Below are positions 9,560 through 47,820 of a stretch of DNA of 64,000 bases, piece after piece. Position numbers and translations under genes: made by a program. The DNA comes from Fidelibacterota bacterium (lineage in GTDB: Bacteria; Fidelibacterota; UBA2242): contig JADHWC010000001.1 of assembly GCA_016783665.1 (NCBI GenBank), forward strand, positions 10,596-74,595. The letters run 5' to 3'. Below the pieces are notes generated by a model that saw nothing but the letters and a program-made list of their open reading frames with translations, ran no database searches and was not told where the DNA came from. How positions within the stretch are numbered: position 1 is the first letter of the stretch; every line of letters begins with the position of its first letter.

Positions 9560-9561
9560 AT

Positions 9562-11174: not shown

Positions 11175-11427
11175 TTATCACCATATAACGTTTCGTTTGC
11201 GTAAAGTATCACTTTGTGACTATTATTGCAAATGAAATGTCATGTATCACAGAGAATAACAATTAAATTCACGATAACATACTCCATGTTAACGTGCGTT
11301 ACAAGTGTTAATATAAAGTGTTTTTATGCAATAGTTATCACGGAACGATAATTCCTGCAATAAATTACTCACGGAATCCATAGCCATTTATAACGCCTCG
11401 TTTGCAATACCTATAACATTGTGACCA

Positions 11428-15501: not shown

Positions 15502-15520
15502 GCTGTCAGCGCCTCATTCA

Positions 15521-16970: not shown

Positions 16971-17017
16971 AAAGTACCTATAGTATATACGTTATTCGTA
17001 ACATTCGCAAGTTAATT

Positions 17018-17034
17018 ATTACGCCATACGTAAT
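17018..17034. promoter_or_regulatory. Inverted repeat ATTACG-N5-CGTAAT upstream of higB-like gene (candidate operator)
   Basis: Perfect 6-bp inverted repeat arms in the 79-nt gap between the hsdR stop and the higB-like start. A second small TACG-N5-CGTA repeat lies at 16988-17000. Confidence 0.25.
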
Positions 17035-17049
17035 ATTGTTAATCAGTAT

Positions 17050-23963: not shown

Positions 23964-25286
23964 ATGGTTACGAAGAATCGATATGAAAGATATAATATAT
24001 TATTCGCAGTATTCATTTTTGCGATTATACTTATTTTGGTTTATAACCTGATTTTACTAAACAAAGATAGATTTAGTTCTGAATCAACAACCAAACTATA
24101 TTTTGCTGATAATATGTCAGCGGCTCATTTAAAAATAATTCAAGAATTCAACAAATTATATTCCGGTAAGATTGAAATAGTCCCGATTGACCTGCCTTTT
24201 ACAAAATTTACTACGAATGAAAGAAAAGAGCTAATAGCTCGATCACTTCGAAGCAAAGATAGTCACATCGATATTTTTGCAGTTGATTTGATATGGGTTC
24301 CTAGATTTGCTAAATGGGCGGAACCTCTTTCTCTGTATTTTTCGCAAAAAGGCCTGTCGAAAATATTGTCTTATGCTCTCTCCACATGCTATTATGAAAA
24401 TAAATTAGTTGGGATTCCGCTTTATTTAGATATTGGTGTGATGTACTACCGTCGCGATATAATATGTAAATATCCCAATAGTTTAGAATTAGAAAAAAAA
24501 CTTAAAAATTCTATTTCCTGGAAGGAATTTATTCAATTAGGATTCAAACAAAAAACGAACAGACCCTTTTACGTATTTCAAGGAGATAGTTATGAAGGCT
24601 TAATCTGTAATTATCTTGAAGTATTTGGTGGAAACGGCGGCAGGCTTTTGACTAATAATAATCTGCAGATTAATTCAATCAAGGCGCAGGAAAGTTGCCA
24701 ACTAATGGTAGATTTGATTTGGAAGTATGATTTTTCTCCTAAGCTGGTTACGAGTTTTAATGAGAACGAGACTTATTATTATGCTTTGGGGAATGATGTC
24801 CCATTTTTTAGGGGTTGGGCAAGTGCTTTGAAGAATATATATGTATCTTCCGTGGATTCTAATAAGGTTCAATATCTTGAAGCTACTACTTTACCCCATT
24901 TCAAAGGGCATCAACCATCGTCAGTTTTTGGAGGATGGAATTTGATGATTTCTAAGAATTCGACAAAGAAAAAGGAGGCTTTAGAGTTTTTAAAGTACAT
25001 TTTGTCTGAAGAAGCGCAGAAGACTCTGTTTGAAACGTCTGGCTTATTACCCATTCTTACGAAAATTTACTATGATGAAATATTGATTGAAAACTATCCA
25101 TATTTTCCGTATTTACTGTCGCTTATAGAGCAAGGGATTCATAGACCACCATTAGTTGATTATACAAAAATTTCTGATATACTTTCATATCACATAAATA
25201 AAGCATTGAAGAAAGAATTATCTGTAGAAGATGCATTGCAACAGGCCGTAGAAATGATCGAATCAAAAAAAGTATTTGTTAGGTGA
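23964..25286 (+). CDS. Membrane-anchored extracellular solute-binding protein (ABC sugar-binding family 1 fold), likely sensor partner of adjacent kinase
   Basis: 440 aa. Single N-terminal TM anchor (NILFAVFIFAIILILVYNLILL) rather than a lipobox. SBP family-1-like segments (KIEIVPIDLPF, DIFAVDLIWVPRFAKWAEPL). No ABC permease or ATPase nearby. Followed by the histidine kinase and response regulator. Confidence 0.65.
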   Translation: MVTKNRYERYNILFAVFIFAIILILVYNLILLNKDRFSSESTTKLYFADNMSAAHLKIIQEFNKLYSGKIEIVPIDLPFTKFTTNERKELIARSLRSKDSHIDIFAVDLIWVPRFAKWAEPLSLYFSQKGLSKILSYALSTCYYENKLVGIPLYLDIGVMYYRRDIICKYPNSLELEKKLKNSISWKEFIQLGFKQKTNRPFYVFQGDSYEGLICNYLEVFGGNGGRLLTNNNLQINSIKAQESCQLMVDLIWKYDFSPKLVTSFNENETYYYALGNDVPFFRGWASALKNIYVSSVDSNKVQYLEATTLPHFKGHQPSSVFGGWNLMISKNSTKKKEALEFLKYILSEEAQKTLFETSGLLPILTKIYYDEILIENYPYFPYLLSLIEQGIHRPPLVDYTKISDILSYHINKALKKELSVEDALQQAVEMIESKKVFVR

Positions 25287-25336: not shown

Positions 25337-26812
25337 ATGAAGTTCTTGAAAAGATTCTCACAGCATAATTTTGAAGTAAAGCATATTATCATTCTTTTCG
25401 TGGTTCTTGTAACTTTTCAGGTTGTTATATCCTATTTACATAAAGTTTCTATGAGTAATCTTATTACACAGACAATGGACTTATATAAAAAAGATTCCGC
25501 TGAAAGATTAGCAAATCTAACCGCAACTTCTCTGGAATTATTATTAGAACAAAGTTTGTTTGATCAAGAAAAAAGCCTCGAGAAAAGGCGTGAAATTATT
25601 CAAGCGTTTAATATTCTTCTGAATCAACAAACCCTGCAACAAAATGTAGATGAATTATGTCTGATATTTACATCGGAAGGTAAAACCTTTGCTATTGACG
25701 AGGGTGTATGGCTCTATAATTTCATTTTTCACTATGAAATTCCGGAAGCCCCCGATAAATGGTTTTATAATGAGGCGATTCACCGTTATCAGCAAATTGC
25801 CCGGGAAATAGAAGATACGGAACAGATATTTTGTAATTGGGATAATATTCAATCCTTTCATGTTCTTGTGCCCTTAGTGTTGAAAGGAGAATACGAAGGC
25901 GTTGTTTATATGAAAATAACGCCGGATGTCAGCCATATCACCCGGGAAATTTCAACGGTTTACGATGAAACCGGCATTATTTTTACTGCGCTAATTTTAT
26001 TTGGTCTTCTCGCCATGTTTTACATTACATCCTACACGGTTAAAGAACGCGATTTAGCCCAGGAACAGCTGTTCAAGGAGCGGGAACTACAGATTAAAAA
26101 GGATATTGCCCATCAGAAAGAAGCGCTTTTTACCAAGCGTATTTATCATGCTCATCACAAAGCCGAAAAAATCATGGGATTTATCAAAGATGAGATTCGC
26201 TTATTGACGGATAAAAATATTGAGAAATTCAAATATATTGTTACCCGGTATTCAAATTTTATTTCCCGGGTTATCTACGATATGAAGTGGTATGAACCAC
26301 CGCTTCACGCGACCCGTAATCCGTTATTCAATACGGATATCAATAAGGTAATCGAGTTTTTAGTTGAATATATTTTCAAACGTGTTTACAGCGAACACAG
26401 CGCTTATGAGTTTGTGCTTGATTTAGATAAAAACGTTCCAAAAGTACATATTAATGAGTATGTGGTCTGGGAAATTTTAGAGCCGTTGATTCAGAATAGT
26501 ATTGATCACAATAAAGAGAAAAATATTACTATTACCATTCGAACAAAATACCATAAAGAAGAGAAATACTCGGAAATTAGATTGAGTGATAATGGTAAGG
26601 GTATTACTCCGAAACTATTAAAATGTAATAAGAAAGGGTTAAAGGAGATATTTCTTGAACATACGTCCACCAGGGAGAATGCCCCCAATTCCGGTTATGG
26701 TTGCTATATTTCCTATGAATTAAGTGCTAAACGCTGTGGTTGGATAATAGATGCAGAGAATCTTGACGCTGGCGGTTGTGTGATAATTATCAAAATTCCT
26801 ACTAAAAATTAA
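25337..26812 (+). CDS. Sensor histidine kinase (two TM helices, periplasmic sensor domain, HATPase_c)
   Basis: 491 aa. TM1 IIILFVVLVTFQVVISYL. TM2 IIFTALILFGLLAMFYITSY. HATPase_c N-box (LIQNSIDHN), G1 (DNGKGI) and G2 (GYGCYIS). Confidence 0.75.
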   Translation: MKFLKRFSQHNFEVKHIIILFVVLVTFQVVISYLHKVSMSNLITQTMDLYKKDSAERLANLTATSLELLLEQSLFDQEKSLEKRREIIQAFNILLNQQTLQQNVDELCLIFTSEGKTFAIDEGVWLYNFIFHYEIPEAPDKWFYNEAIHRYQQIAREIEDTEQIFCNWDNIQSFHVLVPLVLKGEYEGVVYMKITPDVSHITREISTVYDETGIIFTALILFGLLAMFYITSYTVKERDLAQEQLFKERELQIKKDIAHQKEALFTKRIYHAHHKAEKIMGFIKDEIRLLTDKNIEKFKYIVTRYSNFISRVIYDMKWYEPPLHATRNPLFNTDINKVIEFLVEYIFKRVYSEHSAYEFVLDLDKNVPKVHINEYVVWEILEPLIQNSIDHNKEKNITITIRTKYHKEEKYSEIRLSDNGKGITPKLLKCNKKGLKEIFLEHTSTRENAPNSGYGCYISYELSAKRCGWIIDAENLDAGGCVIIIKIPTKN

Positions 26813-26827: not shown

Positions 26828-28270
26828 ATGATTTCCAATACGATTCAAATACTTGTAATTGAAGATGAAGAATTTGATGTACGGCGGATCATAAATACCG
26901 TCAAACCCTATGAAAAGATCATTATTTCCGATATTGTTTCCAGTGGTGTTGATGCGATCAATCTTATTTCTCAAAAGAAGAATTATTACGATGTCGTTAT
27001 CATGGATTTACAGATTGCCGGTGGGATAATGGGTGAAGAACTGATTCAGGAAATCAAGAAAATCAGCCCGCTGACCCAGATAATCGTTGTCACTAAAAAA
27101 ACTATTCACCAAACCGATTTTGATTTTGCCAAACGCCTGATTCAGGCTGGCGCATTCTGGTTTTGTACCAAGTATCCCGGGGATATAGAGACCTACATTT
27201 ATCAACCTACCGATTTTATTCTCAGTATTGTGAATGCTTATGAAAAGAAACAGTTGGAAATTAAGCATCTAAATTCTAAAAAGAAATTAACCAAAAATGT
27301 TCAGGACATTCTTGCTAATAAGATAATTATCGGAGAATCACCTGTAATACAGACGTTAAAAGAACAGCTTCAGCAGTTCGCTGAGACAAACGCCAATATA
27401 TTGATTTATGGAAAATCCGGCACAGGAAAAGAATTGGTTGCCACAAATATCCATTATCTCAGTAATCGGAGTTTGGAAAACTTTATCCCAATCAATTGCG
27501 GGAGTATTCCAAGGGAGTTAATCGAAAGTGAATTGTTCGGATTTGAAAAAGGGTCCTTTACAGGCGCCCAGGAAAGCAGACCGGGATTATTTGAAAGAGC
27601 CAATGAGGGCACGATTTTTCTCGACGAAATTTCGGATTTTCCTTTATCTGCTCAATCGAAGTTATTGAGAGTATTGCAAGATGGTCAAATTGACAAGATC
27701 GGGCGAAAGAAAAGTTATAAAGTCGATGTCCGGGTTATTTCCGCGACCAATAGAGACCTTGAAAAAATGGTAACTGACAAAAAATTCCGTGAAGATCTAT
27801 ACTACAGATTAAATGTTCTACAGATTTACGTTCCATCTCTTGAAGAGCGAAGAGAAGATATTCCCAGATTAGTTGAGTACTACTTAAACCGCTACAGCGC
27901 TGAGATGGGAAGATCCGCACCTGGGTTTGAATCCGGAGCAATGGAAATTTTAACGAATTACTCATGGTCGGGAAATATCCGGCAGTTACAGAATGTAGCT
28001 CAACGCATTTTGTTTCTCAGTAAGGAAAAAATATCCAAAGATTCGGTTATCAGTGCGATTGGAATGAAAATGACGATTGAGGACCATAAACAGCCTTATA
28101 ATTTCGATATGGAACATATACTGCCATTAAAAGAAATTGAACGGCAGTTTCGTAAAGACTATTTAAAATTTGTAAGAAGTCACTGTAAAACCGATGCCGA
28201 AGCTGCCCAAAAACTGGATCTGGCGCCGCCGAATTATTTCCGTATCTCCAAAGAACTAGGTCTAAAATAG
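26828..28270 (+). CDS. Sigma-54-dependent response regulator (NtrC family: receiver + AAA+ sigma-54 activator + Fis-type HTH)
   Basis: 480 aa. Receiver domain with phospho-acceptor context DVVIMDLQIAGG. Walker A YGKSGTGKE. GAFTGA-type motif (GSFTGAQ). Arginine-finger region. C-terminal HTH. Confidence 0.85.
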   Translation: MISNTIQILVIEDEEFDVRRIINTVKPYEKIIISDIVSSGVDAINLISQKKNYYDVVIMDLQIAGGIMGEELIQEIKKISPLTQIIVVTKKTIHQTDFDFAKRLIQAGAFWFCTKYPGDIETYIYQPTDFILSIVNAYEKKQLEIKHLNSKKKLTKNVQDILANKIIIGESPVIQTLKEQLQQFAETNANILIYGKSGTGKELVATNIHYLSNRSLENFIPINCGSIPRELIESELFGFEKGSFTGAQESRPGLFERANEGTIFLDEISDFPLSAQSKLLRVLQDGQIDKIGRKKSYKVDVRVISATNRDLEKMVTDKKFREDLYYRLNVLQIYVPSLEERREDIPRLVEYYLNRYSAEMGRSAPGFESGAMEILTNYSWSGNIRQLQNVAQRILFLSKEKISKDSVISAIGMKMTIEDHKQPYNFDMEHILPLKEIERQFRKDYLKFVRSHCKTDAEAAQKLDLAPPNYFRISKELGLK

Positions 28271-28416: not shown

Positions 28417-28431
28417 TGGCTTACTTTTTGT
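28417..28431 (+). promoter_or_regulatory. Candidate sigma-54 (-24/-12) promoter TGGC-N7-TTGT upstream of symporter gene
   Basis: TTGGCTTACTTTTTGT has the GG and the -12 TTG at correct sigma-54 spacing, though TTGT replaces the consensus TTGC. About 45 nt upstream of the 28475 start and adjacent to the sigma-54 activator gene. Confidence 0.25.
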
Positions 28432-28474: not shown

Positions 28475-30100
28475 ATGTTTCGGTATTTAGAGAATATTGA
28501 TATTTTTCTGCTTTTTTTGTATTTTGGAGGCGTTATGCTTGTGGGATTATATTTTTCCCATCGGGAAAAAACGCCTACGGAATATTTTCTGGCCGGACGG
28601 AATGTCGGATGGATTGCAATCGGTTCCTCATTATTTGCCACCAATATATCCAGCGAACATTTCATCGGTTTGGCGGGCTCCGGAGCCAGCAGTGGTCTGG
28701 CTGTAGGACATTTTGAGTGGATGGCTGTTTTTTTTGTATTGGTGCTTGGATGGGTGTTTGCACCTTTTTATCTCAAGTCCGGGGTATTCACAGTGCCGGA
28801 ATTTTTTGAAAGACGGTTTAATAAATCCAGCCGCATGTATCTGACCACAGTTTCGATTGTTGCTTACATCTTAACAAAAATATCCGTAACACTGTTTGCC
28901 GGTGGAATACTGCTCAATCAGATCCTTGGTTGGAATATGATTACTTCTGCCATCGTGATGGTGATAATTACAGGCATTTATACGATTGCGGGCGGTCTTA
29001 GCGCGGTCATTTATACAGAATTAATCCAAACCGTTATTTTAGTTGGCGGAGCAATGCTGCTGACGATACTGGGACTAAATGAAGTTGGCGGACTGCGGGG
29101 CTTGCAAGCCGCTTTACCGGCTGACTATTTTAGTATGTTCAAACCGGCAAGCCATCCTGAATTTCCCTGGACAGGCATTGTTTTCGGGGCGCCAATTTTG
29201 GCTGTATGGTACTGGTGCACCGATCAGGTGATTGTCCAGCGTGTGCTCAGTGCGAAAAATATTCAACACGCCCGCAGCGGCGCCATCCTTGCCGGTTTTT
29301 TGAAAATATTACCGGTGTTCATTTTGATTTTACCCGGAATGATCGCTCTGGCATTATTTCCCGGTATCAGGGGTGATGAAGCTTATCCCACATTGGTAAT
29401 AAGTCATTTATTGCCTGTGGGTGTACGTGGGATAGTAATCGCCAGTTTATTAGCTGCGTTAATGTCTTCACTGGCAAGTACTTTTAATAGTAGCTCTACA
29501 CTCATTACTATGGATTTTTATAAGCAGTTTCGACCGGATGCCAACGGCAGGGAACTGGTTTTGATTGGTCGATTGGCGACAACAGCATTGGTTATTTTCG
29601 GGATTTTATGGGTGCCGCTTATTCGCAGTATCAGCAGTCATCTGTTTATTTATCTGCAAAGTGTCCAGGCCTATATCAGCCCGCCAATTGCGGCAGTGTT
29701 TATTTGTGGAATATTTATAAAACGGGTTAATGGTAAAGCCGCGATTGTGTCTCTCGTCAGTGGCGGGATATTAGGAGCATTGCGCCTGATTCTGGAAATA
29801 CTCAGTAAAAAAGAGATAATGAATTTTGGAATGATGCAGTGGTATGCAGATATGAATTATCTTCATTTTGCAATCTTTCTTTTTGGTATTTCATCGGCAA
29901 TTGTAGTCTCGGTTAGCCTGCTGTCGGAAAAACCGGGGAATCACAAACTGGAAGGATATACTTTCACTAAAATGAAGGATCTGAAGGATGCCATTGCGGG
30001 AGATAGTAGACGTAGAAATCCGGTTTGGGATAAATTGAATATTGCATTTTCCATAGTACTAATTCTTACAATTCTTAGTCTTTGGGGTGTGTTTTTTTAA
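28475..30100 (+). CDS. Sodium:solute symporter family (SSS/SGLT-like) transporter
   Basis: 541 aa, ~13-14 TM helices. N-terminal signature EYFLAGRNVGWIAIGSSLFATNISSEHFIGLAGSG typical of SSS family sugar/solute symporters. Confidence 0.85.
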   Translation: MFRYLENIDIFLLFLYFGGVMLVGLYFSHREKTPTEYFLAGRNVGWIAIGSSLFATNISSEHFIGLAGSGASSGLAVGHFEWMAVFFVLVLGWVFAPFYLKSGVFTVPEFFERRFNKSSRMYLTTVSIVAYILTKISVTLFAGGILLNQILGWNMITSAIVMVIITGIYTIAGGLSAVIYTELIQTVILVGGAMLLTILGLNEVGGLRGLQAALPADYFSMFKPASHPEFPWTGIVFGAPILAVWYWCTDQVIVQRVLSAKNIQHARSGAILAGFLKILPVFILILPGMIALALFPGIRGDEAYPTLVISHLLPVGVRGIVIASLLAALMSSLASTFNSSSTLITMDFYKQFRPDANGRELVLIGRLATTALVIFGILWVPLIRSISSHLFIYLQSVQAYISPPIAAVFICGIFIKRVNGKAAIVSLVSGGILGALRLILEILSKKEIMNFGMMQWYADMNYLHFAIFLFGISSAIVVSVSLLSEKPGNHKLEGYTFTKMKDLKDAIAGDSRRRNPVWDKLNIAFSIVLILTILSLWGVFF

Positions 30101-30121
30101 GATGGGGAAGCAGGTTTTATT

Positions 30122-31189
30122 ATGAGAAAATCGGTCTGGTTATTTTTAATTCTTGTGGTAATTTTTACGATCGTCATATGTTTTATTTTACCTTTAAAAA
30201 TTCCGTATAAATTAAAAACACCGGGAAAAATTTCGACACGTTTTGAGTGGCTGGTTACAAAAACTCAGGACAACCAGATCGTATCAACTTTACATGATCA
30301 TTCGACCGGGGCAATTCTCAACCAGCGGATATTTCAGTTTGAAAGAAATGATATTATTAACTATCAGCAAACGTCTGGTCACAATTGGCAACAGAGTGTG
30401 GTGGAAAATGATACAATCGCATTTATTCGTTCCAACGAATTAGAGCGACAAATGGAGGAACTATTTGGCGAGCTGCAGGTCGCCAAAGCGACTCTCGATT
30501 TATACCATGCCGGGGAAAAAGAATCTGTCATTGAGGAAGCTCGTAAAAAGATTGATTATGAACGGGGAAGAGCAGATGAGCAACGGCGTGTTGTCAGCCG
30601 TTTACGTTCATTACGCGAACAGAGCCTTATTTCGGACGAAGAATTTGAAAGCGCTGAGAATCGGCAGGAACTCTTCGAAATACGAGTAGAATTGGCAGAA
30701 GCGAAAATGCTGACCGTATCGACAGGAGCACAGCCGGAATTAATTCGAGCCGAAGAGTTTCATGTTCAGTCTCTCCAATCTCAATTACAACTGTTAAGAA
30801 AGCGAATATCGGCATTAAATTTGGTCAGTCCGATAGGTGGAAAATTGATATTTTATCATGACAGCGACACACTTTTTTCAGTTCGTGACCTGTCGGAATT
30901 TTGTGTATTTATACCGGTTCCCCATTCCAAATATTCATATCTTGCTTCAGGTCAAAAAATTGAAGTGATTATACCGGAAAGTAATTCCTTATTCACCGGG
31001 CGGGTTATAGAAATATCACCCGAAGTTCGATTGTTAAACAATAAACAAGTAGTGTTTGTTGTTGCAGCGCTTGATGTTCAAACGCCAGGTCCGATGACCG
31101 GGTCGATTGTAAATGTCAGAATTCATACTGAGCCTGTTTCATTATCGGAATATTTGGGGAGAATCTTAAGAACAGTAACGTTTAATTAA
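30122..31189 (+). CDS. HlyD-like membrane fusion/periplasmic adaptor-type protein (N-terminal TM, long coiled coil, C-terminal beta domain)
   Basis: 355 aa. N-terminal TM anchor, ~100-aa heptad-rich segment, then LNLVSPIGGKLIFY resembling the HlyD hhAPxDGxV motif. Stop is 1 nt before the VTC gene start. Confidence 0.45.
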   Translation: MRKSVWLFLILVVIFTIVICFILPLKIPYKLKTPGKISTRFEWLVTKTQDNQIVSTLHDHSTGAILNQRIFQFERNDIINYQQTSGHNWQQSVVENDTIAFIRSNELERQMEELFGELQVAKATLDLYHAGEKESVIEEARKKIDYERGRADEQRRVVSRLRSLREQSLISDEEFESAENRQELFEIRVELAEAKMLTVSTGAQPELIRAEEFHVQSLQSQLQLLRKRISALNLVSPIGGKLIFYHDSDTLFSVRDLSEFCVFIPVPHSKYSYLASGQKIEVIIPESNSLFTGRVIEISPEVRLLNNKQVVFVVAALDVQTPGPMTGSIVNVRIHTEPVSLSEYLGRILRTVTFN

Positions 31190-31190
31190 T

Positions 31191-31997
31191 ATGCATAGAC
31201 GACGTGAATTTAAATACCTGGTACCAAAGGATCGTTTAAACGAATTCCGATCAGTTATTGCACCTTATGTAGAAAAAGATCAAAATCTTGACTTAAACAA
31301 CTTACTTGATTACAAGGTAAATAGTATTTATTTTGATACGGGGCATTTGAGTTTTTATAAAGAGAAATTGGCAGGGTTGAAACTCCGCAAGAAATTTCGA
31401 ATTCGAAGCTATAATAAACAGACTGAAGACTCGATCGTATTTGTCGAAATTAAACAGAAGGAAGAAAATATCATTAGTAAGAACCGGGCGCCGGTTTATT
31501 ATCGAGATATCAAGCAATTTCTGATATGGGGAAATATTGATCAACATGTTCTGAGTGATGGAAAATTTCCAAATGCCCACAGTGATGCCAGAAAGTTTTT
31601 ATATTATTATTTTGGGAAAAACCTTGTTCCCGTCGTACTGATCGTTTACGATCGTGAAGCCTATCATAGTAAATTTAATCCTGACTTACGCATAACATTT
31701 GATAAAAATATTCGCAGTAAGGTTTGTACTTCGACAGATGAATTATTCACGAAGTATAAGACTGAATATGTTTTAAGAGATTATTTTGTGCTTGAAATAA
31801 AGTTTTATTCCGGTTACCCGCTCTGGTTGAGAAAAATTGTCCAGAAGTTCTCTTTGCAACAACGATCTGTATCGAAATATTCTCACTGTGTCGACAGGCA
31901 TATTGATGAATTGGATATGCACTTTAAACGCTCATCCTATGAATGGGCAAAAGAATATTATTTAAAAAATGATTTTATCAATGAGGAAGTTATATAA
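31191..31997 (+). CDS. VTC-domain (CYTH-like triphosphate tunnel / polyphosphate polymerase-like domain) protein
   Basis: 268 aa. REFKYLV...VNSIYFDTGHLSFYKEK...LRKKFRIRSYN...VFVEIKQKE matches the VTC domain pattern (E-K-[FY]... SlYFDt ... R.R.Y ... E.K.K). Confidence 0.7.
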   Translation: MHRRREFKYLVPKDRLNEFRSVIAPYVEKDQNLDLNNLLDYKVNSIYFDTGHLSFYKEKLAGLKLRKKFRIRSYNKQTEDSIVFVEIKQKEENIISKNRAPVYYRDIKQFLIWGNIDQHVLSDGKFPNAHSDARKFLYYYFGKNLVPVVLIVYDREAYHSKFNPDLRITFDKNIRSKVCTSTDELFTKYKTEYVLRDYFVLEIKFYSGYPLWLRKIVQKFSLQQRSVSKYSHCVDRHIDELDMHFKRSSYEWAKEYYLKNDFINEEVI

Positions 31998-32671
31998 TGT
32001 TTAATGGATTCGAGAACCTGTTTGTGTATTCCATAAATCCCGGACAAGTCATCGTGAATATGGTAATAGCGTTTATCTGTGGGTTTTTAATTTCCATAAT
32101 TTATCGCTGGACATATTCCGGACCGACTTATTCGGTTACTTATCTCAATTCTCTAATTGTTTTATCCATGATCACCAGTATTGTCATAATGGTAATTGGC
32201 AATAATCTTGCCCGGGCGTTTGGGTTGGTAGGCGCCATGTCGATCATCAGATTTCGGACTGCTATTAAAGATACACAGGATATTGTTTTTATTTTCTTTT
32301 CGTTAGCGGTTGGGATGGCGTCCGGTGTTGGGATGCATCTGATTGCCCTGTTCGGTGTGTTGTTGATTGGCGCGGTTTTCATTGTATTATCCAAAACGCA
32401 ATTCGCCTATCCGTTACGAAAAGAGCTGTTGGTACAGTTTTCCTATAAATCCGGTAGTGAGGGAGAAACGCCATATCTTACCGTATTTAAGAAATATTGT
32501 AAAAGCAGTAGTTTGATCAATGTCAAAGCAATTGGTGGAAAAGGTAATATTGAGATATCCTATTATGTACATTTACACCAAAAAGATCAAAGTAAAGAAT
32601 TTGTCAGCGAGTTGAAAAATATTCCTGGTATCGATTATGTCAATCTATTATTTGATGAAGAAAAATTTTAA
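31997..32671 (+). CDS. DUF4956-family membrane protein
   Basis: 224 aa. 3-4 TM helices. Signature ARAFGLVGAMSIIRFRTAIKDTQDIVFIFFSLAVGMASG. ATG overlaps the VTC stop codon (TAATG), consistent with coupling. Confidence 0.7.
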   Translation: MFNGFENLFVYSINPGQVIVNMVIAFICGFLISIIYRWTYSGPTYSVTYLNSLIVLSMITSIVIMVIGNNLARAFGLVGAMSIIRFRTAIKDTQDIVFIFFSLAVGMASGVGMHLIALFGVLLIGAVFIVLSKTQFAYPLRKELLVQFSYKSGSEGETPYLTVFKKYCKSSSLINVKAIGGKGNIEISYYVHLHQKDQSKEFVSELKNIPGIDYVNLLFDEEKF

Positions 32672-32687
32672 TTTGTGGGAGTTTAAA

Positions 32688-34928
32688 ATGAATTTTACAC
32701 AATCTTTGATGATCGTAGTGATGAGTTTTATGGTGCTTATTTCGGGTTGCCAAAAAGGTGATAACCTGACCATTGATATTGAGGTGAAAAAATTAATTTC
32801 TCAGATGACCCTTGAAGAAAAAATCGGACAAATGACTCAATTGACTATTGATAGTGTTTCTAAAGTGAAAGGCACGGAATCCGATTTGCATCAAATTGAT
32901 CTGGCAAAATTAGAAGAGGCTATTATTGAATATCATATTAGTTCAATACTTAATGTTTATGATGCTGCTTATACTCTGGATTATTGGCATGAGATCATTA
33001 ATCAGATTCAAGATATTGCAACGAAGAAAACCCGCCTGGGAATACCGATAATATACGGCATAGATGCAATTCATGGGGCTAATTATATCGTTGGAGCAAC
33101 TATATTTCCTCAATCTATCGGTATGGCAGCAACCTGGAATCCGGAGTTGGTCAGGAAAGAGGGTGAAATTACTGCTACTGAGACCAGGGCGTCCGGAGTT
33201 CCATGGAATTTTAATCCCGTTTTAGGTTTAGGTCGTCAACCTTTATGGCCAAGATTATTTGAAACCTATGGAGAGGATGTTTATTTGGCATCTGTAATGG
33301 GGGCAGAATATGTTAAAGGGTTACAAGGTAATGATATTTCCAATCCTGAGAAAGTTGCAGCCTGCGCGAAACATTACGTCGGTTATAGTTTTCCTCTTTC
33401 CGGTAAGGATCGTACTCCCGCCTGGATACCCGAGAGAATGTTGCGGGAACTTTTTTTGCCGACTTTTAAATCTGCAATTGAAGCGGGCGCTGCTACCGTT
33501 ATGGTAAATAGTTCTGAGATTAACGGAATACCAGTTCATTCCAGCTATTATTTATTGACGGAAGTGCTTAGAAATGAATTAGGCTTTGATGGTTTTGTTG
33601 TGTCGGACTGGAATGATATTAATAATTTGTATCTCCGTGAAAAAGTAGCCGCAACTCAAAAAGAAGCGGTTAAAATGGCTGTCATGGCTGGCGTAGATAT
33701 GAGTATGGTGCCTTATGATTTTAGCTTTTATGAACTTTTGTTAGAGTTAGTTAATGAAGGTGTTGTGCCTGAATGGAGAATTGACGAGGCGGTTACAAGA
33801 ATTCTTAAAGTTAAATTTGAACTTGGACTTTTTGAAAGTCCTTATCCCAATGTAAAATTAAAGAAAAAATTCGCATGTGGTAAATTCAGAAAAGTAAACT
33901 TGCAAGCGGCAAGAGAGGCAATTACCCTTCTTAAAAATGATAGCAGGTTGTTGCCCTTATCAAAAGACAAAAAAATATTTATAACCGGACCTACTGCAAA
34001 TTCGCTTTCAGTTATGAATAGCGGGTGGACAATAACCTGGCAGGGAGATCAAGAAGATCTGTATCCAAAGAGTAAGAAAACGATTTTGCAAGCTGTTGAG
34101 AACAAAGCTGGAGCCAAAAATGTGACTTATTTACCCGGGGTTACATTTGATAAAGAAATTGATATAAATGCAGCTGTAAAGGCGGCAAGAAATTCAGATG
34201 TTGCTATTGTCTGTATAGGTGAGAATCCCTATTGTGAACTTATTGGAAATATTGACGATTTAACCATGACTCAATCGCAATTAAAGCTAGCGAAAGCGAT
34301 AGAAGAAACGGGTGTTCCTGTTGTACTTGTTTTGGTAGAAGGGCGTCCCCGGATTATTAACGGCATTGTGGACGATGTAGATGCTATCTTAATGGCGTAT
34401 TTACCGGGAATGGAAGGTGGTTCTGCAGTAGCAGATGTTCTTTTTGGAGACTTTAATCCTTGTGGAAAACTACCGATTACTTACCCGGGATATACGAACT
34501 CCCTGATGTGCTATGACTATAAAAACAGTGAAATTTCAGAAATAAATGATTATGACGCCCAATTTCCATTTGGCTATGGTTTAAGCTATACAAAATTTGA
34601 GTACAGTGACTTAAAATTGGATAAAGCAGAGATAAATGAGAGTGATGAACTAAACGTTCAAGTCACTGTAAAAAATACAGGTGAAATTACCGGCAAGGAA
34701 GTAGTACAACTATATGTCAGCGACCTGGTTGCTTCTGTAACCCCATCGGTTAAACGGCTTAAACGATTTTCAAAAATATTGCTTGAACCGGAAGAAGCTA
34801 AAACTGTAAATTTCACTCTTTACAAAGACGATTTATCTTTCATTGGCAGAGAGAATGTTCGGATTGTTGAGCCGGGTGAATTTGTGGTAAGTGTGGCGGA
34901 TTTAACTGCCCAATTCAAGTTGAAATAA
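32688..34928 (+). CDS. Glycoside hydrolase family 3 beta-glucosidase (BglX-like), lipoprotein
   Basis: GH3 nucleophile region GFVVSDWNDI. Typical KHYVGYS region and C-terminal FnIII-like domain. Start moved to the ATG at 32688 (lipobox LISGC, upstream GGGAG RBS) rather than 32637, which overlaps the preceding gene. Confidence 0.85.
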   Translation: MNFTQSLMIVVMSFMVLISGCQKGDNLTIDIEVKKLISQMTLEEKIGQMTQLTIDSVSKVKGTESDLHQIDLAKLEEAIIEYHISSILNVYDAAYTLDYWHEIINQIQDIATKKTRLGIPIIYGIDAIHGANYIVGATIFPQSIGMAATWNPELVRKEGEITATETRASGVPWNFNPVLGLGRQPLWPRLFETYGEDVYLASVMGAEYVKGLQGNDISNPEKVAACAKHYVGYSFPLSGKDRTPAWIPERMLRELFLPTFKSAIEAGAATVMVNSSEINGIPVHSSYYLLTEVLRNELGFDGFVVSDWNDINNLYLREKVAATQKEAVKMAVMAGVDMSMVPYDFSFYELLLELVNEGVVPEWRIDEAVTRILKVKFELGLFESPYPNVKLKKKFACGKFRKVNLQAAREAITLLKNDSRLLPLSKDKKIFITGPTANSLSVMNSGWTITWQGDQEDLYPKSKKTILQAVENKAGAKNVTYLPGVTFDKEIDINAAVKAARNSDVAIVCIGENPYCELIGNIDDLTMTQSQLKLAKAIEETGVPVVLVLVEGRPRIINGIVDDVDAILMAYLPGMEGGSAVADVLFGDFNPCGKLPITYPGYTNSLMCYDYKNSEISEINDYDAQFPFGYGLSYTKFEYSDLKLDKAEINESDELNVQVTVKNTGEITGKEVVQLYVSDLVASVTPSVKRLKRFSKILLEPEEAKTVNFTLYKDDLSFIGRENVRIVEPGEFVVSVADLTAQFKLK

Positions 34929-34966
34929 ATTCTTATAAACAAAAATGACGAGGATTTTGGGAGAAT

Positions 34967-37900
34967 TTGGCATATAAAATATTTCAACGTTGCTTCTTTT
35001 TGCTGCTTTTTATGACTGGTTTTTTTCAGGTCTTGACCGCCCAGTCGGTAGTTATTAATGAAGTAATGTCCGCTAATGTCAATACCATCAGTGATGAAGA
35101 CGGTGAATTTCCCGATTGGATCGAATTGTATAATCCGGCTAATATCGCTGTAAGTCTTGCCGGATATTCTCTTTCGGATGACAGTAGTGATCTGCAAAAG
35201 TGGATTTTGCCGGAAGTCGTTCTGGAGCCGCACGGCTATTTACTTGTCTTCGCCTCAGGGAAGGATCGTAATGAATATATTTCTTACTGGCAGGCTGAAA
35301 TAACCGCCGGGGATGTCTGGAAGTACCGTATTGGAGATTCAGAACCTCCGGCGGACTGGAGCGCCTTAACTTTCGATGATGCGAATTGGCTGGAAGGACC
35401 GACCGGAATCGGCTATGGCGATGACGATGATGCGACCGTCATTTCGGCTACGAACTCGGTATATATCCGAAAAACGTTTTATATCGCGGATGTTAACGCT
35501 GTCCGGGCGGCCCTGCTGCATGTGGATTATGACGATGCCTTTATTGCCTATTTAAACGGGACGGAAATTGCCCGGGCAAACATCAGCGGCGATCATCCAC
35601 CGTACAATCAGCCGGCGGATACATATACCGAACCAAAAATTAGATATGGTGGAAAGCCGGAGCAATTCCGGATTGATTCTCTAAAAAATATAATCACTGA
35701 AGGATCGAATGTTCTGGCGATCCAGGTACATAACAGCAGTCTAGAATCTTCCGATTTGACCATTATTCCGTTTTTAACACTTGGATTACAATCCGAACCA
35801 CCAGCGCCAAGAGCGCCGGATGATTTATTGGAAATACGCCCCTATTATTTGCACACAAATTTTAAAGTAAATTCACAAGGTGAAAATATTTATCTGATCG
35901 GCGAGCAGGGAATAAAACTGGATGAAGTTAATCCGGGCAATATGCCCAATGACGTTTCTTATGGGCGTTATCCCGATGGTACTTCCAATTGGTATTATTA
36001 CAGTAATACAACTCCCGGTGGACCCAACAATGGCTCGGGATATCAACGAGTCGGATCCTGTGTTTATTTTTCATTGCCGGGCGGACTGTATAATTTTCCG
36101 ATTACGCTTGAACTGACTGCGGAAAATCCTTCCGCAACCATATACTACTCATTAGACGGCTCTGTACCTTCAGAATCGTCGTTGGTATATTCCAGCCCAC
36201 TTGATATCAATGAAAGTAAAGTAGTTCGTGCAAGCAGTATTGAAACAGACGCTCTTGAAAGTCCGATAATGACGAATACTTATATCGTGGGACAACAGCA
36301 CAATCTGGCGATTATATCGCTTGCAACCGCACCGGAGAATCTCTGGGATCCGGACAGCGGTATTTACGTCATGGGTCACAATGCCTCGTCTGAGTTGCCC
36401 TTTTATGGCGCGAATTTCTGGCAGGACTGGGAACGACCGGTGCATATTGAATTTTTTGAGCCTGATGGTCAGATGGGGTTCTCAATGGATGCCGGCATGA
36501 AAATATTCGGGGGCTGGAGCCGGGTGAAACCGCAAAAACCGCTGGCGCTATTTGCCCGTCGAAGATATGGATTTAATGAGATAGATTATCAGGTATTCCC
36601 GGAATTACCCATAAAGCGATTTCAGGCTCTGGTTCTGCGTAATTCCGCCAATGACTGGGAATATACGATGTTCAGAGATGCGATGATGCAGAGCCTGGTG
36701 GAAGGCACGCATATAGATCTGCAGGCTTATCGTCCGGCGGTTGTCTATTTAAACGGCGCATATTGGGGGATTCATAATATCCGGGAGAAAATCAACGAGC
36801 ATTATATTGCCTCACATTACAATATTGATCCTGATAATCTTGATTTATTGGAAAACAGAAGCGTTCCGTTACAGGGCGACGCCGAACATTATACCGCATT
36901 GGAAAATTACATTTCCACTCACGATTTGAGTATCCCTGCAAACTACGAGTATGTTCAATCTCAAATGGATATTCAAAATTTTATCGATTACCAGACTGCC
37001 CAGATCTTTTTTGATAACCGTGACTGGCCCGGAAATAATCTCAAATACTGGCGGGGAAAAAAGGCAACCGGCAGGTGGCGCTGGATACTGTATGACACGG
37101 ATTTCGGATTTGGATTATATAATCCCACAGCTTATCTATTAAACACCCTTGAATTTGCTACTGCCACTAACGGTCCGGATTGGCCCAACCCAGCCTGGTC
37201 GACGCTTTTTCTAAGGAAATTATTGGAAAATAAGGAGTTCAAAATCGGATTTGTCAATCGATTCGCCGACCTGTTGAATACAAATTTCAAAAGCGATCTG
37301 GTATATCAAAAAATTGAATATTTTAAAAACCTCATTGAGTCGGAAATGCCAAATCATTTTGGGCGCTGGCAAGAAGGACTCGGATGGTACTCGCTTAACG
37401 TCTGGTATTATCATATCGAAACCTTAAAGACCTTTGCGAAATTTCGACCGGCTTATGTTACCGCGCATATTATCGGCAAGTTTCACTTAAATGGTGTGGT
37501 GGTCGTTAAAATCCAACACTTGTCGGCAGCCGGGAAAGTCAGAATAAACAGTATTCTTGTTGACGACGATTTATGGACGGGGAATTATTTTAAAGGAGTA
37601 CCCGTAGAGCTGGAGGCAATTCCCCGACCGGGTTATCGGTTTATTGAGTGGCAGGGGATTGATAATTACAATCTGAATCCGGTCAGGATTGTTCCTTCTG
37701 AGGCGCTGGATATTACAGCGGTTTTTGAGATTGACAGCGGTTACACAGGGGAGATTGTCATAAATGAGATAAACTACCATTCTCACCCTGATTTTGATTC
37801 CGGTGACTGGGTTGAACTTTACAATGCGTCGGAGATTGAAAAGAATTTAAGCGGCTGGATCTTCAGGGATTCCAATGCTGAAAATCAATTCGTAATTCCG

Positions 37901-38524
37901 GAAGGTGTGGTTTTAAATCCGGGCGGGTTTCTGATTTTGTCAAATGATACGTCGAAATTCAGAACTCAATTTCAGTCGGCAGGTAATGTCTGTGGAAATT
38001 TTGAATTCAACCTGAGTAACTCCGGTGAAACAATCATGCTGTATAATCACGCCGGTTATTTAGTGGATTCCGTCTGTTATGACGACGAGGCGCCCTGGCC
38101 TGTCGGGGCTGATGGTGGCGGTACAACACTCTCCCTGATCGACCCGGGACTGGATAATTCCAAACCGGAAAATTGGGGAATATCATCCGGTTATGGAACA
38201 CCCGGAATTCCCAACATCATTTCCGCTATCGATGATAATCGTGCTATAATTTTTGATACTTACTCTATGGGCTTAAATTTTCCCAACCCTTTTAATTCAA
38301 CGACGATAATTCCGCTAAATGTCGAACACACGAGTAATGTTCAAATATTGATCTTTAATGTTAACGGACAACTTATGGATAATCTATTTCAGGGACGCCT
38401 CCAGCCGGGGAGTTATAATTTCTGCTGGAAACCAACCGCCCTTTTACCTTCGGGTATATACTTTTATCAAATTGTAAAAGGTTGTAACATACCCGTTACA
38501 AAAAAAATGCTATTTCTAAAGTAA
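34967..38524 (+). CDS. Secreted LTD-CotH-LTD multidomain protein with chitobiase-C-like Ig domain and T9SS C-terminal sorting domain
   Basis: 1185 aa. Signal peptide. Lamin tail domain 1 (EFPDWIELYNPANIAVSLAGYSLSDD). GYGDDDDATVIS...NVLAIQVHN module. CHB_HEX_C-like segment (ATIYYSLDGSVPSESSLVYSSPLDI). CotH core (FARRRYGF...AVVYLNGAYWGIHNIREKINEHY). Lamin tail domain 2 (DSGDWVELYNASEIEKNLSGWIFRD). T9SS CTD (LNFPNPFNSTTIIPL...GIYFYQI...KKMLFLK). Confidence 0.85.
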   Translation: MAYKIFQRCFFLLLFMTGFFQVLTAQSVVINEVMSANVNTISDEDGEFPDWIELYNPANIAVSLAGYSLSDDSSDLQKWILPEVVLEPHGYLLVFASGKDRNEYISYWQAEITAGDVWKYRIGDSEPPADWSALTFDDANWLEGPTGIGYGDDDDATVISATNSVYIRKTFYIADVNAVRAALLHVDYDDAFIAYLNGTEIARANISGDHPPYNQPADTYTEPKIRYGGKPEQFRIDSLKNIITEGSNVLAIQVHNSSLESSDLTIIPFLTLGLQSEPPAPRAPDDLLEIRPYYLHTNFKVNSQGENIYLIGEQGIKLDEVNPGNMPNDVSYGRYPDGTSNWYYYSNTTPGGPNNGSGYQRVGSCVYFSLPGGLYNFPITLELTAENPSATIYYSLDGSVPSESSLVYSSPLDINESKVVRASSIETDALESPIMTNTYIVGQQHNLAIISLATAPENLWDPDSGIYVMGHNASSELPFYGANFWQDWERPVHIEFFEPDGQMGFSMDAGMKIFGGWSRVKPQKPLALFARRRYGFNEIDYQVFPELPIKRFQALVLRNSANDWEYTMFRDAMMQSLVEGTHIDLQAYRPAVVYLNGAYWGIHNIREKINEHYIASHYNIDPDNLDLLENRSVPLQGDAEHYTALENYISTHDLSIPANYEYVQSQMDIQNFIDYQTAQIFFDNRDWPGNNLKYWRGKKATGRWRWILYDTDFGFGLYNPTAYLLNTLEFATATNGPDWPNPAWSTLFLRKLLENKEFKIGFVNRFADLLNTNFKSDLVYQKIEYFKNLIESEMPNHFGRWQEGLGWYSLNVWYYHIETLKTFAKFRPAYVTAHIIGKFHLNGVVVVKIQHLSAAGKVRINSILVDDDLWTGNYFKGVPVELEAIPRPGYRFIEWQGIDNYNLNPVRIVPSEALDITAVFEIDSGYTGEIVINEINYHSHPDFDSGDWVELYNASEIEKNLSGWIFRDSNAENQFVIPEGVVLNPGGFLILSNDTSKFRTQFQSAGNVCGNFEFNLSNSGETIMLYNHAGYLVDSVCYDDEAPWPVGADGGGTTLSLIDPGLDNSKPENWGISSGYGTPGIPNIISAIDDNRAIIFDTYSMGLNFPNPFNSTTIIPLNVEHTSNVQILIFNVNGQLMDNLFQGRLQPGSYNFCWKPTALLPSGIYFYQIVKGCNIPVTKKMLFLK

Positions 38525-38628: not shown

Positions 38629-38808
38629 ATGGCGGATATATTCATCAAATTAAAAGTATATGGTTTGGCTTGGTTTTTGTTATTTATTACTGTGATGAGC
38701 ACTATCACATATAAAATTTACAAAACAAATTGCATTATAACTGTTGGTTGGAATCCGGGTGTTTTTGCCGGTTTCAATCCATTATATCGAGAAATAATAA
38801 CAAATTAA
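38629..38808 (+). CDS. Possible 59-codon small membrane protein (not in ORF track, below length cut-off)
   Basis: AAGGAGG Shine-Dalgarno 13 nt upstream of the ATG. Encodes MADIFIKLKVYGLAWFLLFITVMSTITYKIYK... with one predicted TM helix. The stop overlaps the AAGGAGG RBS of the next gene. No homology recognised. Confidence 0.2.
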   Translation: MADIFIKLKVYGLAWFLLFITVMSTITYKIYKTNCIITVGWNPGVFAGFNPLYREIITN

Positions 38809-44263: not shown

Positions 44264-44319
44264 GAATGTCCAAAAAGTGGGATGGAGATCAAATGATCAC
44301 ATTAGGAGGTCAGTCATCA

Positions 44320-47300: not shown

Positions 47301-47775
47301 CATTGATTTTATCGGAACTTTCGGAGATAGTACCCTCCTTCCTCAACCCGGAGACGTTTATCATGTAACTTTTAACCGACCTTTCTTTAAAACAGACTCA
47401 ATTGCGTTTACCGTGGCGACTTACGATTCTCTGGATAAACAAGACCTTAAATATACCATGAAAGATATTAAAGTTGTCCCCAATCCCTATGTGGCAACTA
47501 ATGCCATGGAACCATCGGTTGCAAACTGGTTTTTAAATCAGCGCCGGCGCTTATTGTTTACCAATTTACCGGCTCAATGCACGATTAAAATATTTACCGT
47601 CAGTGGTGTTTTAGTGGACAAAATTGATGTAAATAATAATTCCGACGACGGTATCGCGCACTGGGATATGCTGACCAGTGAAAATCTTGAGATCGCCGCG
47701 GGAATGTATATATATCACGTGCAGTCCAAGTTGACTAACGATGAGAAGGTTGGCAAATTCGCCGTAATAAAATAG
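44320..47775 (+). CDS. Large secreted calcium-binding (Asp-rich, thrombospondin-type-3/dockerin-like repeat) protein with divergent T9SS C-terminal sorting domain
   Basis: Start moved to ATG 44320 (AGGAGG RBS, signal peptide MKKMSKIFLFILACLLLSSIIYGQ). Asp-rich loops (DNDEDGLVDE, DEDQDWQDGEDLNGNGIYDVGEDAGDDVGLDG). C-terminal ~100 aa (VVPNPYV...CTIKIFTVSGVLV...IAHWDMLTSENLEIAAGMYIYHVQ...KFAVIK) parallels the CTD pattern NPF / beta-strands / G-Y-Y / terminal K. Confidence 0.6.
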   Translation: MKKMSKIFLFILACLLLSSIIYGQGKLYEGPDDPAADPAAIREGYMTGNRVLLYFRNTTQLSDWPKVEVSKWPNTYEGTKMVDGIGLLIGAQVFITQDTVPVTDPTQRILLNAQHKLDTLYFLQTHYREEMDRDPTGQIEWGLYPVFGYFNENSEYPAMSNLPNSWPTAGWPASGDQLQWQGEWDGRFGRGVIYADLETYFVANDAQDQEYLGPEDIVKYYPRPERKIGDKRPSVTVQYGKPWGGIGIRVEQRGFQWNNPQARDAIFWEYNIANISDYDLPEMAFGYWVDNAIGDNVAGAGDDDELGFFDRKIDLAYSWDIDGIGQGGYPTGIMGFAYLESPGLAYDEIDNDEDGLVDEKRDNPAGNIIGPTVGIAVLSDFLEFYRLTEEDLRDHYEGDEDQDWQDGEDLNGNGIYDVGEDAGDDVGLDGVGPSELNYTGPDPGECNHMPDYTEDGCEPNFAATDVSESDMVGLTSFQLFPIQPHRPPYTKWFRNDKSMWEVVGSDTLIEYLGNISNLVETFASGPFPLYQGRTERISMSELHSFDPLEGLSSDEYSAPALFELKRIVQVIYEKDYRFAQPPKMPTLTATAGDGKVILTWDDIADTKTRDPFVGNVNDFEGYKLFRATDKKMSDAEVITDGYGTPMFKKPIFQCDIKDDRTGFTDFGLVNGMGYNLGTDSGIRHYFIDTNVQNGRTYYYAIVAYDYGAPHIGPGISPSENNIIIELDEAEEIRNTTKNVQIVTPHQRAAGYVPEDIQMDLNDDIIGTGTVVPEILAKNSLKPGHLYKVSFGLDTLGVIDKYDHGVYYTNNSINVFDATDSVVIYKENPDRFPGTNLVYDDTLDNWYINTLNVINTDVFDGLRLNIQISVRTATFDYGNSGWIVGSSPINVTPTKRESKFFSWDYDIIFSDEVKYTGQGSASRIRDVNDTQIRRDLLTTEDFNFYVVNKTFTDSVEVLDMVVHDLDKNSQFDILTDKIYVGPLNSDGKWAGAVFAIDFIGTFGDSTLLPQPGDVYHVTFNRPFFKTDSIAFTVATYDSLDKQDLKYTMKDIKVVPNPYVATNAMEPSVANWFLNQRRRLLFTNLPAQCTIKIFTVSGVLVDKIDVNNNSDDGIAHWDMLTSENLEIAAGMYIYHVQSKLTNDEKVGKFAVIK

Positions 47776-47820
47776 AAGATATGGGTATCTATGATGACTG
47801 TGGGAATGAAAGGTGATAAA

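Follow-up and report, generated by a model that had tools for sequence, protein, structure and literature searches.

Genes for a CotH-type kinase, a poly-phosphate polymerase and a DUF4956 protein, with DUF4832 as a further member, are known as accessory genes of Gram-positive pel operons, and no adaptor gene is listed for those loci (Whitfield et al., bioRxiv 10.1101/768473, also PMC7112168). In Streptococcus intermedius the CotH/VTC/DUF4956 block corresponds to SIR_1594-1592 and lies beside pel; its authors report that they did not see the three genes together anywhere but at pel (PMC12345266). In NELoc-2 of Clostridium perfringens, the VTC gene stands next to that of a membrane protein named "tubulin/FtsZ", and cotH follows (PMC2879425). 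Judging from its size and membrane prediction, the "tubulin/FtsZ" protein is probably a DUF4956 protein. Here we describe a related gene set in a 64,000-nucleotide stretch of DNA from a Fidelibacterota bacterium (assembly GCA_016783665.1, contig JADHWC010000001.1, positions 10,596 to 74,595 of the forward strand). This stretch is called the window below, and coordinates count from its first letter. The three families are encoded there in a run of six plus-strand genes (28475-38524) that also specifies a periplasmic adaptor. Among the window open reading frames (ORFs) scanned there are no pel-type families, the neighbours being GH3, GH16, GH5, TonB receptor and SSF genes. The window and dozens of other loci thus contradict a pel-only occurrence of the triad. 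The original prediction, made from the sequence alone, took the function of the triad to be undescribed. The triad itself had been reported, beside pel and in NELoc-2, with its function left unresolved there. What does appear undescribed so far is the version that contains an adaptor, is linked to TolC and lies outside pel, along with its glycan-foraging setting; full-text searches gave no description of an adaptor or TolC link, or of polyphosphate as a CotH donor.

The run opens with a sodium:solute symporter (SSS) of the SSF family (28475-30100; Pfam SSF 2e-92, 311 bits; TIGR00813 380 bits). It is followed by a HlyD-like periplasmic adaptor, MacA/EmrA-like in profile and fold (30122-31189), a stand-alone VTC-domain protein (31191-31997), a DUF4956 membrane protein with MgtC/YhiD-like features (31997-32671), and a GH3 lipoprotein of the beta-glucosidase type (32688-34928; Pfam GH3 N-terminal, C-terminal and Fn3-like domains; lipobox LISGC). 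A secreted multidomain CotH kinase (34967-38524), which begins at a TTG codon and has a signal peptide, closes it. The intervals are 21 nt from the symporter to the adaptor, 1 nt from the adaptor to VTC, 16 nt from DUF4956 to GH3 and 38 nt from GH3 to CotH, and the DUF4956 start codon overlaps the VTC stop (TAATG). The ORF map and junction sequences thus reproduce the gene junctions originally described, with the first gap corrected from 22 to 21 nt. The family assignments all hold in Pfam and profile searches; that of the HlyD-like protein is the weakest and is confirmed by its family profile and fold (see below). An independent gene caller finds the same genes on the identical public contig (L081), with an alternative symporter start at 28539.

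The central observation is that three of these genes form a conserved cassette. Using VTC alone as bait, an alignment of 29 homologues was run against one-genome-per-species contigs, and 80 loci were retrieved and annotated with hidden Markov models built from the window proteins. All 80 of these closest genomic examples are bacterial. The window organism belongs to Marinimicrobia (Candidatus Neomarinimicrobiota), the name that NCBI gives to an identical DUF4956 protein. The nearest VTC, with 94% identity, is in a Neomarinimicrobiota metagenome-assembled genome; a further relative (L002) has a VTC 71% identical to that of the window. DUF4956 lies directly 3' of VTC in 79 of the 80 loci and the HlyD-like adaptor directly 5' of it in 65, with junctions that overlap or span a few nt, across about 12 phyla. 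The obligate unit is therefore HlyD-like adaptor, VTC and DUF4956, in that order. The adaptor is present in 23/23 loci of Ignavibacteriota, 15/16 of Bacteroidota and 7/7 of Calditrichota, and in every locus of Marinimicrobia (Neomarinimicrobiota), Zixibacteria, Latescibacteria, Krumholzibacteria, KSB1, Kryptonia and Rhodothermota, which covers nearly all loci of the FCB group. It is absent from Anaerolineae (0/7 assessable loci) and Stahlbacteria/WOR-3 (0/3). The HlyD-like gene, at first counted as one operon member among several, does belong to the operon, but its standing is that of a core, envelope-specific component of the cassette.

VTC is regarded as the eukaryote-type polyphosphate polymerase and PPK as the prokaryote-type one in reviews (PMC12526157), and a review of 2025 keeps the eukaryote-type label for VTC. 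The window protein matches Pfam VTC (PF09359) with 146 bits against a cut-off of 23, over profile positions 2-231 of 235, and a VTC family profile searched against the PDB finds the Vtc4 catalytic domain (3g3q) at 3e-15. Its K8, R70/R72, E86/K88, R155, R167 and E202/K204 align with Vtc4 K200, R264/R266, E279/K281, R361, R373 and E426/K428, and these active-site positions are invariant in 29 homologues. The roles of the Vtc4 tunnel residues were reportedly worked out by Hothorn and colleagues in 2009. The protein has 268 amino acids and is soluble, with no signal peptide, membrane segment or other Pfam domain; neither an SPX domain nor a fused VTC membrane domain is found in it. A HMMER scan of 1.84 billion cluster representatives gave 6,112 VTC relatives at E up to 1e-10, the best 150 of which are all stand-alone proteins of 183-310 amino acids. 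Natural VTC-DUF4956 fusions were sought among the top matches and none was seen. Judged by its retained Vtc4 catalytic residues, the window VTC is a putative polyphosphate polymerase.

The adaptor falls below the Pfam HlyD threshold (HlyD_D23, 22.9 bits against a gathering score of 30), and at E up to 0.01 only 14 of 37 family members match HlyD_3 and 4 of 37 HlyD_D23. The family profile (A6) nevertheless finds MacA (2.3e-7), EmrA (9.3e-7) and AcrA (3e-5) in the PDB. An N-terminal membrane helix and a coiled-coil-rich middle are evident in the sequence. The AlphaFold2 model (pLDDT 84.8) places helices over residues 105-230 between beta domains; its alignment was shallow, a word-indexed homologue search having given 6 proteins, and the model is confident all the same. 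Foldseek matches it to MacA (5e-13), MacAB-TolC, EmrAB-TolC (7e-12) and AcrA/MexA (1e-9). As modelled, the protein is a genuine membrane fusion protein, with anchor, barrel-sandwich, long alpha-hairpin and beta-barrel. An adaptor homologue found by sequence alone (P0245) is likewise followed by VTC and DUF4956 genes. A pairing of the adaptor with the neighbouring symporter was considered and rejected: SSS homologues adjoin the cassette in L002 and five Ignavibacteriales loci, and just 6 of the 65 loci that have an adaptor also have SSS, which assigns the adaptor to VTC rather than to the symporter.

An outer-membrane component is added in cis in five loci of Cytophagia type (L009, L012, L016, L040 and L068): a TolC-like OEP gene (Pfam 4e-38) lies 3 nt 3' of DUF4956. 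No ABC, MFS or RND pump consistently adjoins the cassette in the 80 loci, and none does so in the window; a single ABC cluster is seen, in 8 loci, and its distance varies. In three Calditrichota loci (L030, L034 and L052) a second adaptor homologue lies upstream of the cassette, joined in L030 by an ABC ATPase and a 413-residue ORF, a possible MacAB-like set. The TolC loci have no CotH and encode instead a divergently transcribed type IX secretion system (T9SS) protein made of two lamin-tail domains (LTDs), together with a 182-residue protein of no assigned family and a 340-residue, weakly phytase-like protein just 5' of the adaptor (e.g. L012:5270-12813). It may be that the LTD, and not the kinase, is the module that recognises the exported product. 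Gut Bacteroides may pair the module with a different outer-membrane component, DUF2490, which we take to be an outer-membrane family. In B. thetaiotaomicron, a DUF4956 gene is listed with a DUF2490 gene (BT3498-BT3499) as showing a 7.6-fold change under iron limitation (given as -7.6, with 0.175 beside it; PMC10434189).

DUF4956 (Pfam PF16316, 57.3 bits against a gathering score of 30.6; matched by 40/40 homologues) is the more conserved of the pair, with 52-60% identity across phyla as against about 45% for VTC. An invariant segment, G68-N-x-x-A-R73-A-F-G-L-V-G...I-I-R85-F-R87...K91...D95, lies beside the membrane helices. The AlphaFold2 model (pLDDT 73) shows five helices, four hydrophobic and one basic, and a C-terminal beta-alpha-beta-beta-alpha-beta domain, which is ACT-like and predicted to be cytoplasmic. 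Weak Pfam matches to MgtC cover the membrane region in 37 of 40 family members, and the C-terminal domain superimposes on those of MgtC proteins. With scores of 15 bits against a cut-off of 31.4 for MgtC (PF02308) and 27 against 214 for NCBIfam PRK09977, the relation is remote kinship and not membership.

CotH is the most frequent companion of the cassette. It lies within 10 kb in 38 of the 80 loci, and in 22 of the 38 loci with full flanks (at least 9 kb on each side of the cassette); in 19 of these 38 it abuts the cassette on the same strand. Where present, it occupies a cassette-flanking slot in 28 of 37 loci, as against 11 expected from random placement within the locus. The original statement that CotH, VTC and DUF4956 are neighbours in other genomes is thus borne out, well above chance. 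Depending on the lineage, CotH lies 5' of the adaptor or 3' of DUF4956, once on the opposite strand. No other non-core family reaches more than 11 of the 80 loci. Proteins with an LTD and a T9SS C-terminal domain (CTD) but no CotH are also recurrent neighbours, and CotH or another LTD protein occurs in 45 of the 80 loci. Among phosphate-related neighbours, a PHO4 gene is found in two loci and an SdiA-regulated/phytase-like propeller in at least 11. This beta-propeller of about 270 residues (L011, L015, L027, L028, L042, L044, L047, L049, L070, L075 and L080) is encoded directly 3' of DUF4956, on either strand, in 9 of the 11 loci, and in L047 and L075 about 1.2-1.7 kb 5' of VTC; as a "fourth gene" it offers an alternative to CotH.

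The operon CotH has 1185 amino acids and reads, in order, LTD, CHB_HEX_C, CotH (residues 512-831), InlB-B-like, LTD and T9SS CTD. The further CotH-LTD protein that had been noted upstream is indeed present (20794-23694, plus strand), with Pfam LTD and Por_Secre_tail matches. Pfam CotH (PF08757) scores 171 bits in the operon protein and 192 bits in the upstream one, against a gathering score of 23.8. Both were originally taken for T9SS cargo with LTDs, and rightly so by their signal peptides and by TIGR04183 scores of 32.4 (operon copy) and 46.6 bits against a cut-off of 23. Among the CotH ORFs of the VTC-retrieved loci, 31 of 49 carry an LTD and 35 of 49 a T9SS CTD. A PDB search with the operon CotH domain as a single sequence gave no match; a family profile was required, and that of 30 CotH domains (A5) finds B. 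cereus CotH (5jd9) at 3.5e-46. In the operon protein the Asp and Asn of the catalytic loop (D686 and N691) and the Asp that binds metal (D710) are all kept. The upstream protein has Asp/Ser/Asp and is the sole one of the 30 aligned domains with Ser in the Asn column; going by this substitution, the paralogue may have weakened catalysis or none. Orthologues of it stand next to the cassette, directly 3' of a CotH2-like gene, in six Ignavibacteriales loci.

Our leading reading, held with slightly less than even confidence, is that the cassette is a trans-envelope polyphosphate synthase-exporter. The cytoplasmic VTC triphosphate-tunnel enzyme would polymerise polyphosphate from ATP while docked on DUF4956, at its basic face and at its ACT-like domain in the cytoplasm. 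DUF4956 would hand the growing anionic chain across the inner membrane. The MacA/EmrA-type adaptor would then lead the polymer across the periplasm to an outer-membrane duct of TolC type, whose gene lies in cis in some Bacteroidota and is presumably unlinked in the window genome. The original prediction of a VTC/DUF4956 pair supplying a phosphoryl polymer outward fits the evidence and is strengthened by it. The exported polymer would serve the co-encoded, T9SS-secreted surface proteins, mostly CotH kinases with lamin-tail domains; in other lineages LTD-only or phytase-like proteins would act on the polymer or with it. On the most economical view, polyphosphate would be a phosphoryl donor in a compartment without ATP. 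That CotH does use exported polyphosphate in this manner we consider unlikely at present.

Several observations weigh against the synthase-exporter reading, in whole or in its CotH part, and they are given here along with the alternatives. The best placed of these, rather unlikely in our estimation, is that polyphosphate is exported, or loaded to the periplasm or surface, for ends unrelated to CotH, such as cation chelation, surface charge, a matrix or pseudo-capsule, or extracytoplasmic storage of phosphate, the CotH-LTD proteins being merely co-regulated and having another donor or a binding role. CotH of B. cereus and of B. subtilis is ATP-dependent. About half of the cassettes have no CotH within 10 kb, the TolC loci carry LTD-CTD proteins and a phytase-like propeller in its place, and the upstream CotH of the window is without the catalytic-loop Asn. 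Conversely, most CotH2-like genes lie away from VTC: in a reverse census of 80 metagenomic loci encoding CotH2-like domains, VTC or DUF4956 was within reach in 14. This census covers CotH2-like kinases, for which a narrow alignment (A7) was used, the broad A5 being too diverse; a jackhmmer search seeded from L048 was discarded because the seed included the T9SS CTD and recruited all CTD proteins. Since CotH accompanies VTC in 38 of 80 loci and the reverse holds in only 14 of 80, CotH is a preferred but facultative partner, the two are not strictly interdependent, and a genome may have CotH genes in excess of its cassettes. The linkage of CotH, VTC and DUF4956, originally conceived as one unit, therefore stands, with CotH outside the obligate part. 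Against a mere co-regulation speak the intact catalytic residues of the operon CotH, its rank as by far the commonest non-core neighbour, its usual position abutting the cassette on the same strand, and a linkage that survives rearrangement in several phyla and in Gram-positives.

It seems improbable, and to a slightly greater degree, that VTC and DUF4956 form an MgtC-like module of phosphate or energy homeostasis at the cytoplasmic membrane, VTC making or hydrolysing polyphosphate or triphosphate in the cytoplasm, with no export and with a structural or regulatory adaptor. DUF4956 does resemble MgtC in its membrane and C-terminal domains, and MgtC itself is a known regulator, acting on F-ATPase and PhoR, and is not known to be a channel. 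DUF4956 has no recognisable channel fold; when its membrane domain was compared with solved structures by Foldseek and by sequence profile, only ACT domains or noise came up. Two further points count against the synthase-exporter reading: no TolC-family gene is found among the ORFs scanned in the 64-kb window, an unlinked copy being outside this view, and any correlation of the adaptor with an outer membrane would be drawn from groups other than Stahlbacteria/WOR-3, whose loci are without the adaptor. Against a homeostasis module, the adaptor is tightly coupled to the cassette in 65 of 80 loci, TolC is encoded in cis in 5, and the recurrent neighbours are secreted proteins. A dedicated adaptor and a TolC in cis are difficult to account for unless something crosses the envelope. 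The genetic data from S. intermedius point both ways: deletion of the DUF4956 or the CotH homologue alters Pel level and aggregation, which counts for the synthase-exporter reading, whereas deletion of VTC has no aggregation phenotype, and the authors considered that polyphosphate might stay cytoplasmic (PMC12345266).

A further alternative, which we think quite improbable, keeps the export function and changes the cargo: VTC would make or process another product, either nucleotide-derived or a polyphosphate on a lipid, glycan or protein primer. As is generally known, triphosphate-tunnel enzymes are catalytically diverse, the others being phosphatases or cyclases. Full-text searches gave no description of bacterial VTC activity, and the ties of the cassette to polysaccharide loci, pel as well as beta-glucan, count for this reading. 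The best match is nonetheless to the Vtc4 catalytic domain, with the polymerase residues conserved, which argues for polyphosphate itself.

The polysaccharide context is marked in the window. Downstream of the operon CotH, after a gap of 205 nt, plus-strand genes at 38730-59346 encode, by Pfam, a CBM9-CTD protein, a TonB-dependent receptor, a 1169-residue protein, a PorV-like protein, GH16+malectin-CTD, GH3, GH16, GH3 and GH5+CBM6-CTD. Over the whole downstream locus there are two GH16, two more GH3, two GH5 and a second SSF gene. A GH3 gene also adjoins the cassette in L002, L005 and six Ignavibacteriales loci. These six loci hold homologues of window genes at 33-61% identity, on one strand and in another order; the set that they have in common comprises both CotH types, SSS, the cassette, GH3, the 1169-residue protein, the PorV-like protein and GH16+malectin. 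The occurrence of one gene set, differently ordered, in two phyla is an argument that in these lineages the cassette and the CotH proteins function together with beta-glucan degradation at the surface. The idea of incidental operon shuffling within a polysaccharide-utilisation locus, for which the GH3 gene between DUF4956 and CotH in the window and the widely varying flanking genes might be cited, is effectively refuted by the same comparison, with a cassette kept across about 12 phyla, CotH enriched at its flanks, and the gene set retained in two phyla despite rearrangement. Just 3' of the TonB-dependent receptor, the 1169-residue protein (44266-47775), which has no Pfam match, is followed by the PorV-like outer-membrane protein (47791-48891); the two are kept near the cassette in the six Ignavibacteriales loci at 33-39% identity, and may be a surface glycan-binding or T9SS-shuttle pair.

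Immediately upstream of the operon lie plus-strand genes for a periplasmic solute-binding protein that partners the two-component system as its sensor (23964-25286; Pfam SBP_bac_1), a sensor histidine kinase (25337-26812; Pfam HATPase_c) and a response regulator of the sigma-54 activator type (AAA+; 26828-28270; Pfam Response_reg and Sigma54_activat, 235 bits). Their order, with the symporter next, is the same in L002. A sigma-54-like motif, TGGCTTACTTTTTGT (28417-28431, plus strand), is situated 44 nt 5' of the SSS start codon. A second copy, TGGCTTGGTTTTTGT (38666-38680, plus strand), lies in the 205-nt gap before the CBM9/T9SS gene, marking where the following transcription unit begins, and a third, TGGCTCAATTTTTGT (62150-62164, minus strand), lies 5' of the second SSF gene (60470-62041, minus strand). 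The window has these 3 exact matches to the pattern TGGCT-N3-TTTTTGT, where 0.54 would be expected, all intergenic and correctly oriented; the pattern was drawn from two of its three sites, so that the third alone is independent. The 15-mer TGGCTTACTTTTTGT is identical 5' of SSS in L002, in a spacer that has otherwise diverged. The motif has TGGC and the right spacing, with TTGT as its -12 element, and departs from the canonical GG at -24 and GC at -12. The canonical TGGCAC-N5-TTGC, with up to 2 mismatches, occurs at chance level in the window (41 matches against 40.5 expected). The sigma-54 promoter suspected in the original prediction is therefore plausible in position and conservation, and non-canonical in its -12 element.

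The three motif copies suggest that the neighbouring sigma-54 activator has a regulon whose promoters carry TTGT at -12. Over 23.6-41.6 kb, promoter-like sigma-70 matches are at the level of shuffled sequence, and a terminator scan gave weak, intragenic matches only, with none credible in the gaps of 28475-38524. The motif and the gaps fit one transcript, dependent on sigma-54 and running from SSS to CotH, with the adjacent three-component sensor in control. On this model a sigma-54-type promoter, run by the adjacent solute-binding protein, histidine kinase and activator, would drive the symporter, the cassette, GH3 and CotH, and the system would be induced along with the degradation of beta-glucan.

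Other parts of the window hold genes of different kinds. A defence-type island upstream (6773-19812) encodes a type I restriction-modification system (HsdM 8114-9559, HsdR 17050-19812), an AbiEi/AbiEii toxin-antitoxin pair (9562-11174), a KAP-family NTPase (11529-13772) and a Fic protein; GC falls to 0.33 at 12-14 kb. Near the start (79-2910) lie genes for a TMEM260-like protein O-mannosyltransferase homologue with TPR repeats and, after it, a GT2 glycosyltransferase.

We know of no bacterial route that places polyphosphate outside the cytoplasm. An operon joining VTC to a membrane protein and an efflux-type adaptor, with or without TolC, is a concrete and testable candidate for one and, if the synthase-exporter reading is true, extends the tripartite-pump architecture to polymerase-driven cargo. 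The link to secreted CotH proteins touches on the puzzle of the phosphoryl donor of extracellular kinases. The fullest form of the proposal would be the first dedicated bacterial machine for polyphosphate secretion, together with polyphosphate-dependent CotH-LTD kinases that phosphorylate beta-glucan fragments or surface components of glycan harvesting. We regard it as doubtful; if true, it would describe a self-contained extracellular phosphorylation system with its own supply of phosphoryl donor. The findings also bear on the unexplained accessory genes of Pel biofilms in streptococci, clostridia and bifidobacteria, and the wiring to marine beta-glucan degradation in an uncultured phylum hints at phosphate chemistry in polysaccharide foraging.

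Compared with known systems, the Gram-positive pel block has the same three families: its CotH is secreted, its VTC cytoplasmic, and its membrane protein has four helices and an ACT domain. The window host differs in being diderm, in having the adaptor in addition (and TolC elsewhere), and in the targeting of its CotH by the T9SS with LTDs. The CotH spore-coat kinase of Bacillus (PDB 5jd9) has a homologous kinase domain, whose Asp/Asn/Asp set is kept in the operon copy, whereas the window protein is large and multidomain (1185 residues), comes from a non-sporulating diderm, and is predicted to reach the surface by Sec and the T9SS. MgtC/YhiD/SapB proteins share with DUF4956 the weak but consistent Pfam matches and the C-terminal ACT-like domain; DUF4956 has an invariant basic motif of its own (R73, R85, R87 and K91) and is obligately paired with VTC. 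The adaptor has the architecture found in MacAB-TolC and EmrAB-TolC, and in five related loci a TolC-family gene completes the operon. Here, however, the inner-membrane partner is a polymerase with an MgtC-like protein in place of an ABC, MFS or RND pump, the cargo is presumed to be a polymer synthesised in place, and the adaptor scores below Pfam HlyD thresholds.

The closest parallel in chemistry is the eukaryotic VTC complex (yeast Vtc4/Vtc3/Vtc1; PDB 3g3q, 7ytj and 8i6v), which has the same catalytic family with conserved Lys, Arg and Glu residues in the tunnel. In both cases the enzyme has a genetic tie to a small membrane protein whose basic residues are conserved, and the proposed logic is alike, synthesis being coupled to translocation out of the cytosol. 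The bacterial enzyme, in contrast, is a stand-alone protein of 268 residues with neither SPX nor a fused membrane domain, and its membrane partner is the MgtC-like DUF4956 instead of the three-helix VTC membrane domain. The proposed destination is the exterior, by way of the adaptor with or without TolC, and not the vacuole. By analogy, the machine would be a bacterial counterpart of the eukaryotic VTC complex, built from other membrane parts on the scaffold of a tripartite pump.

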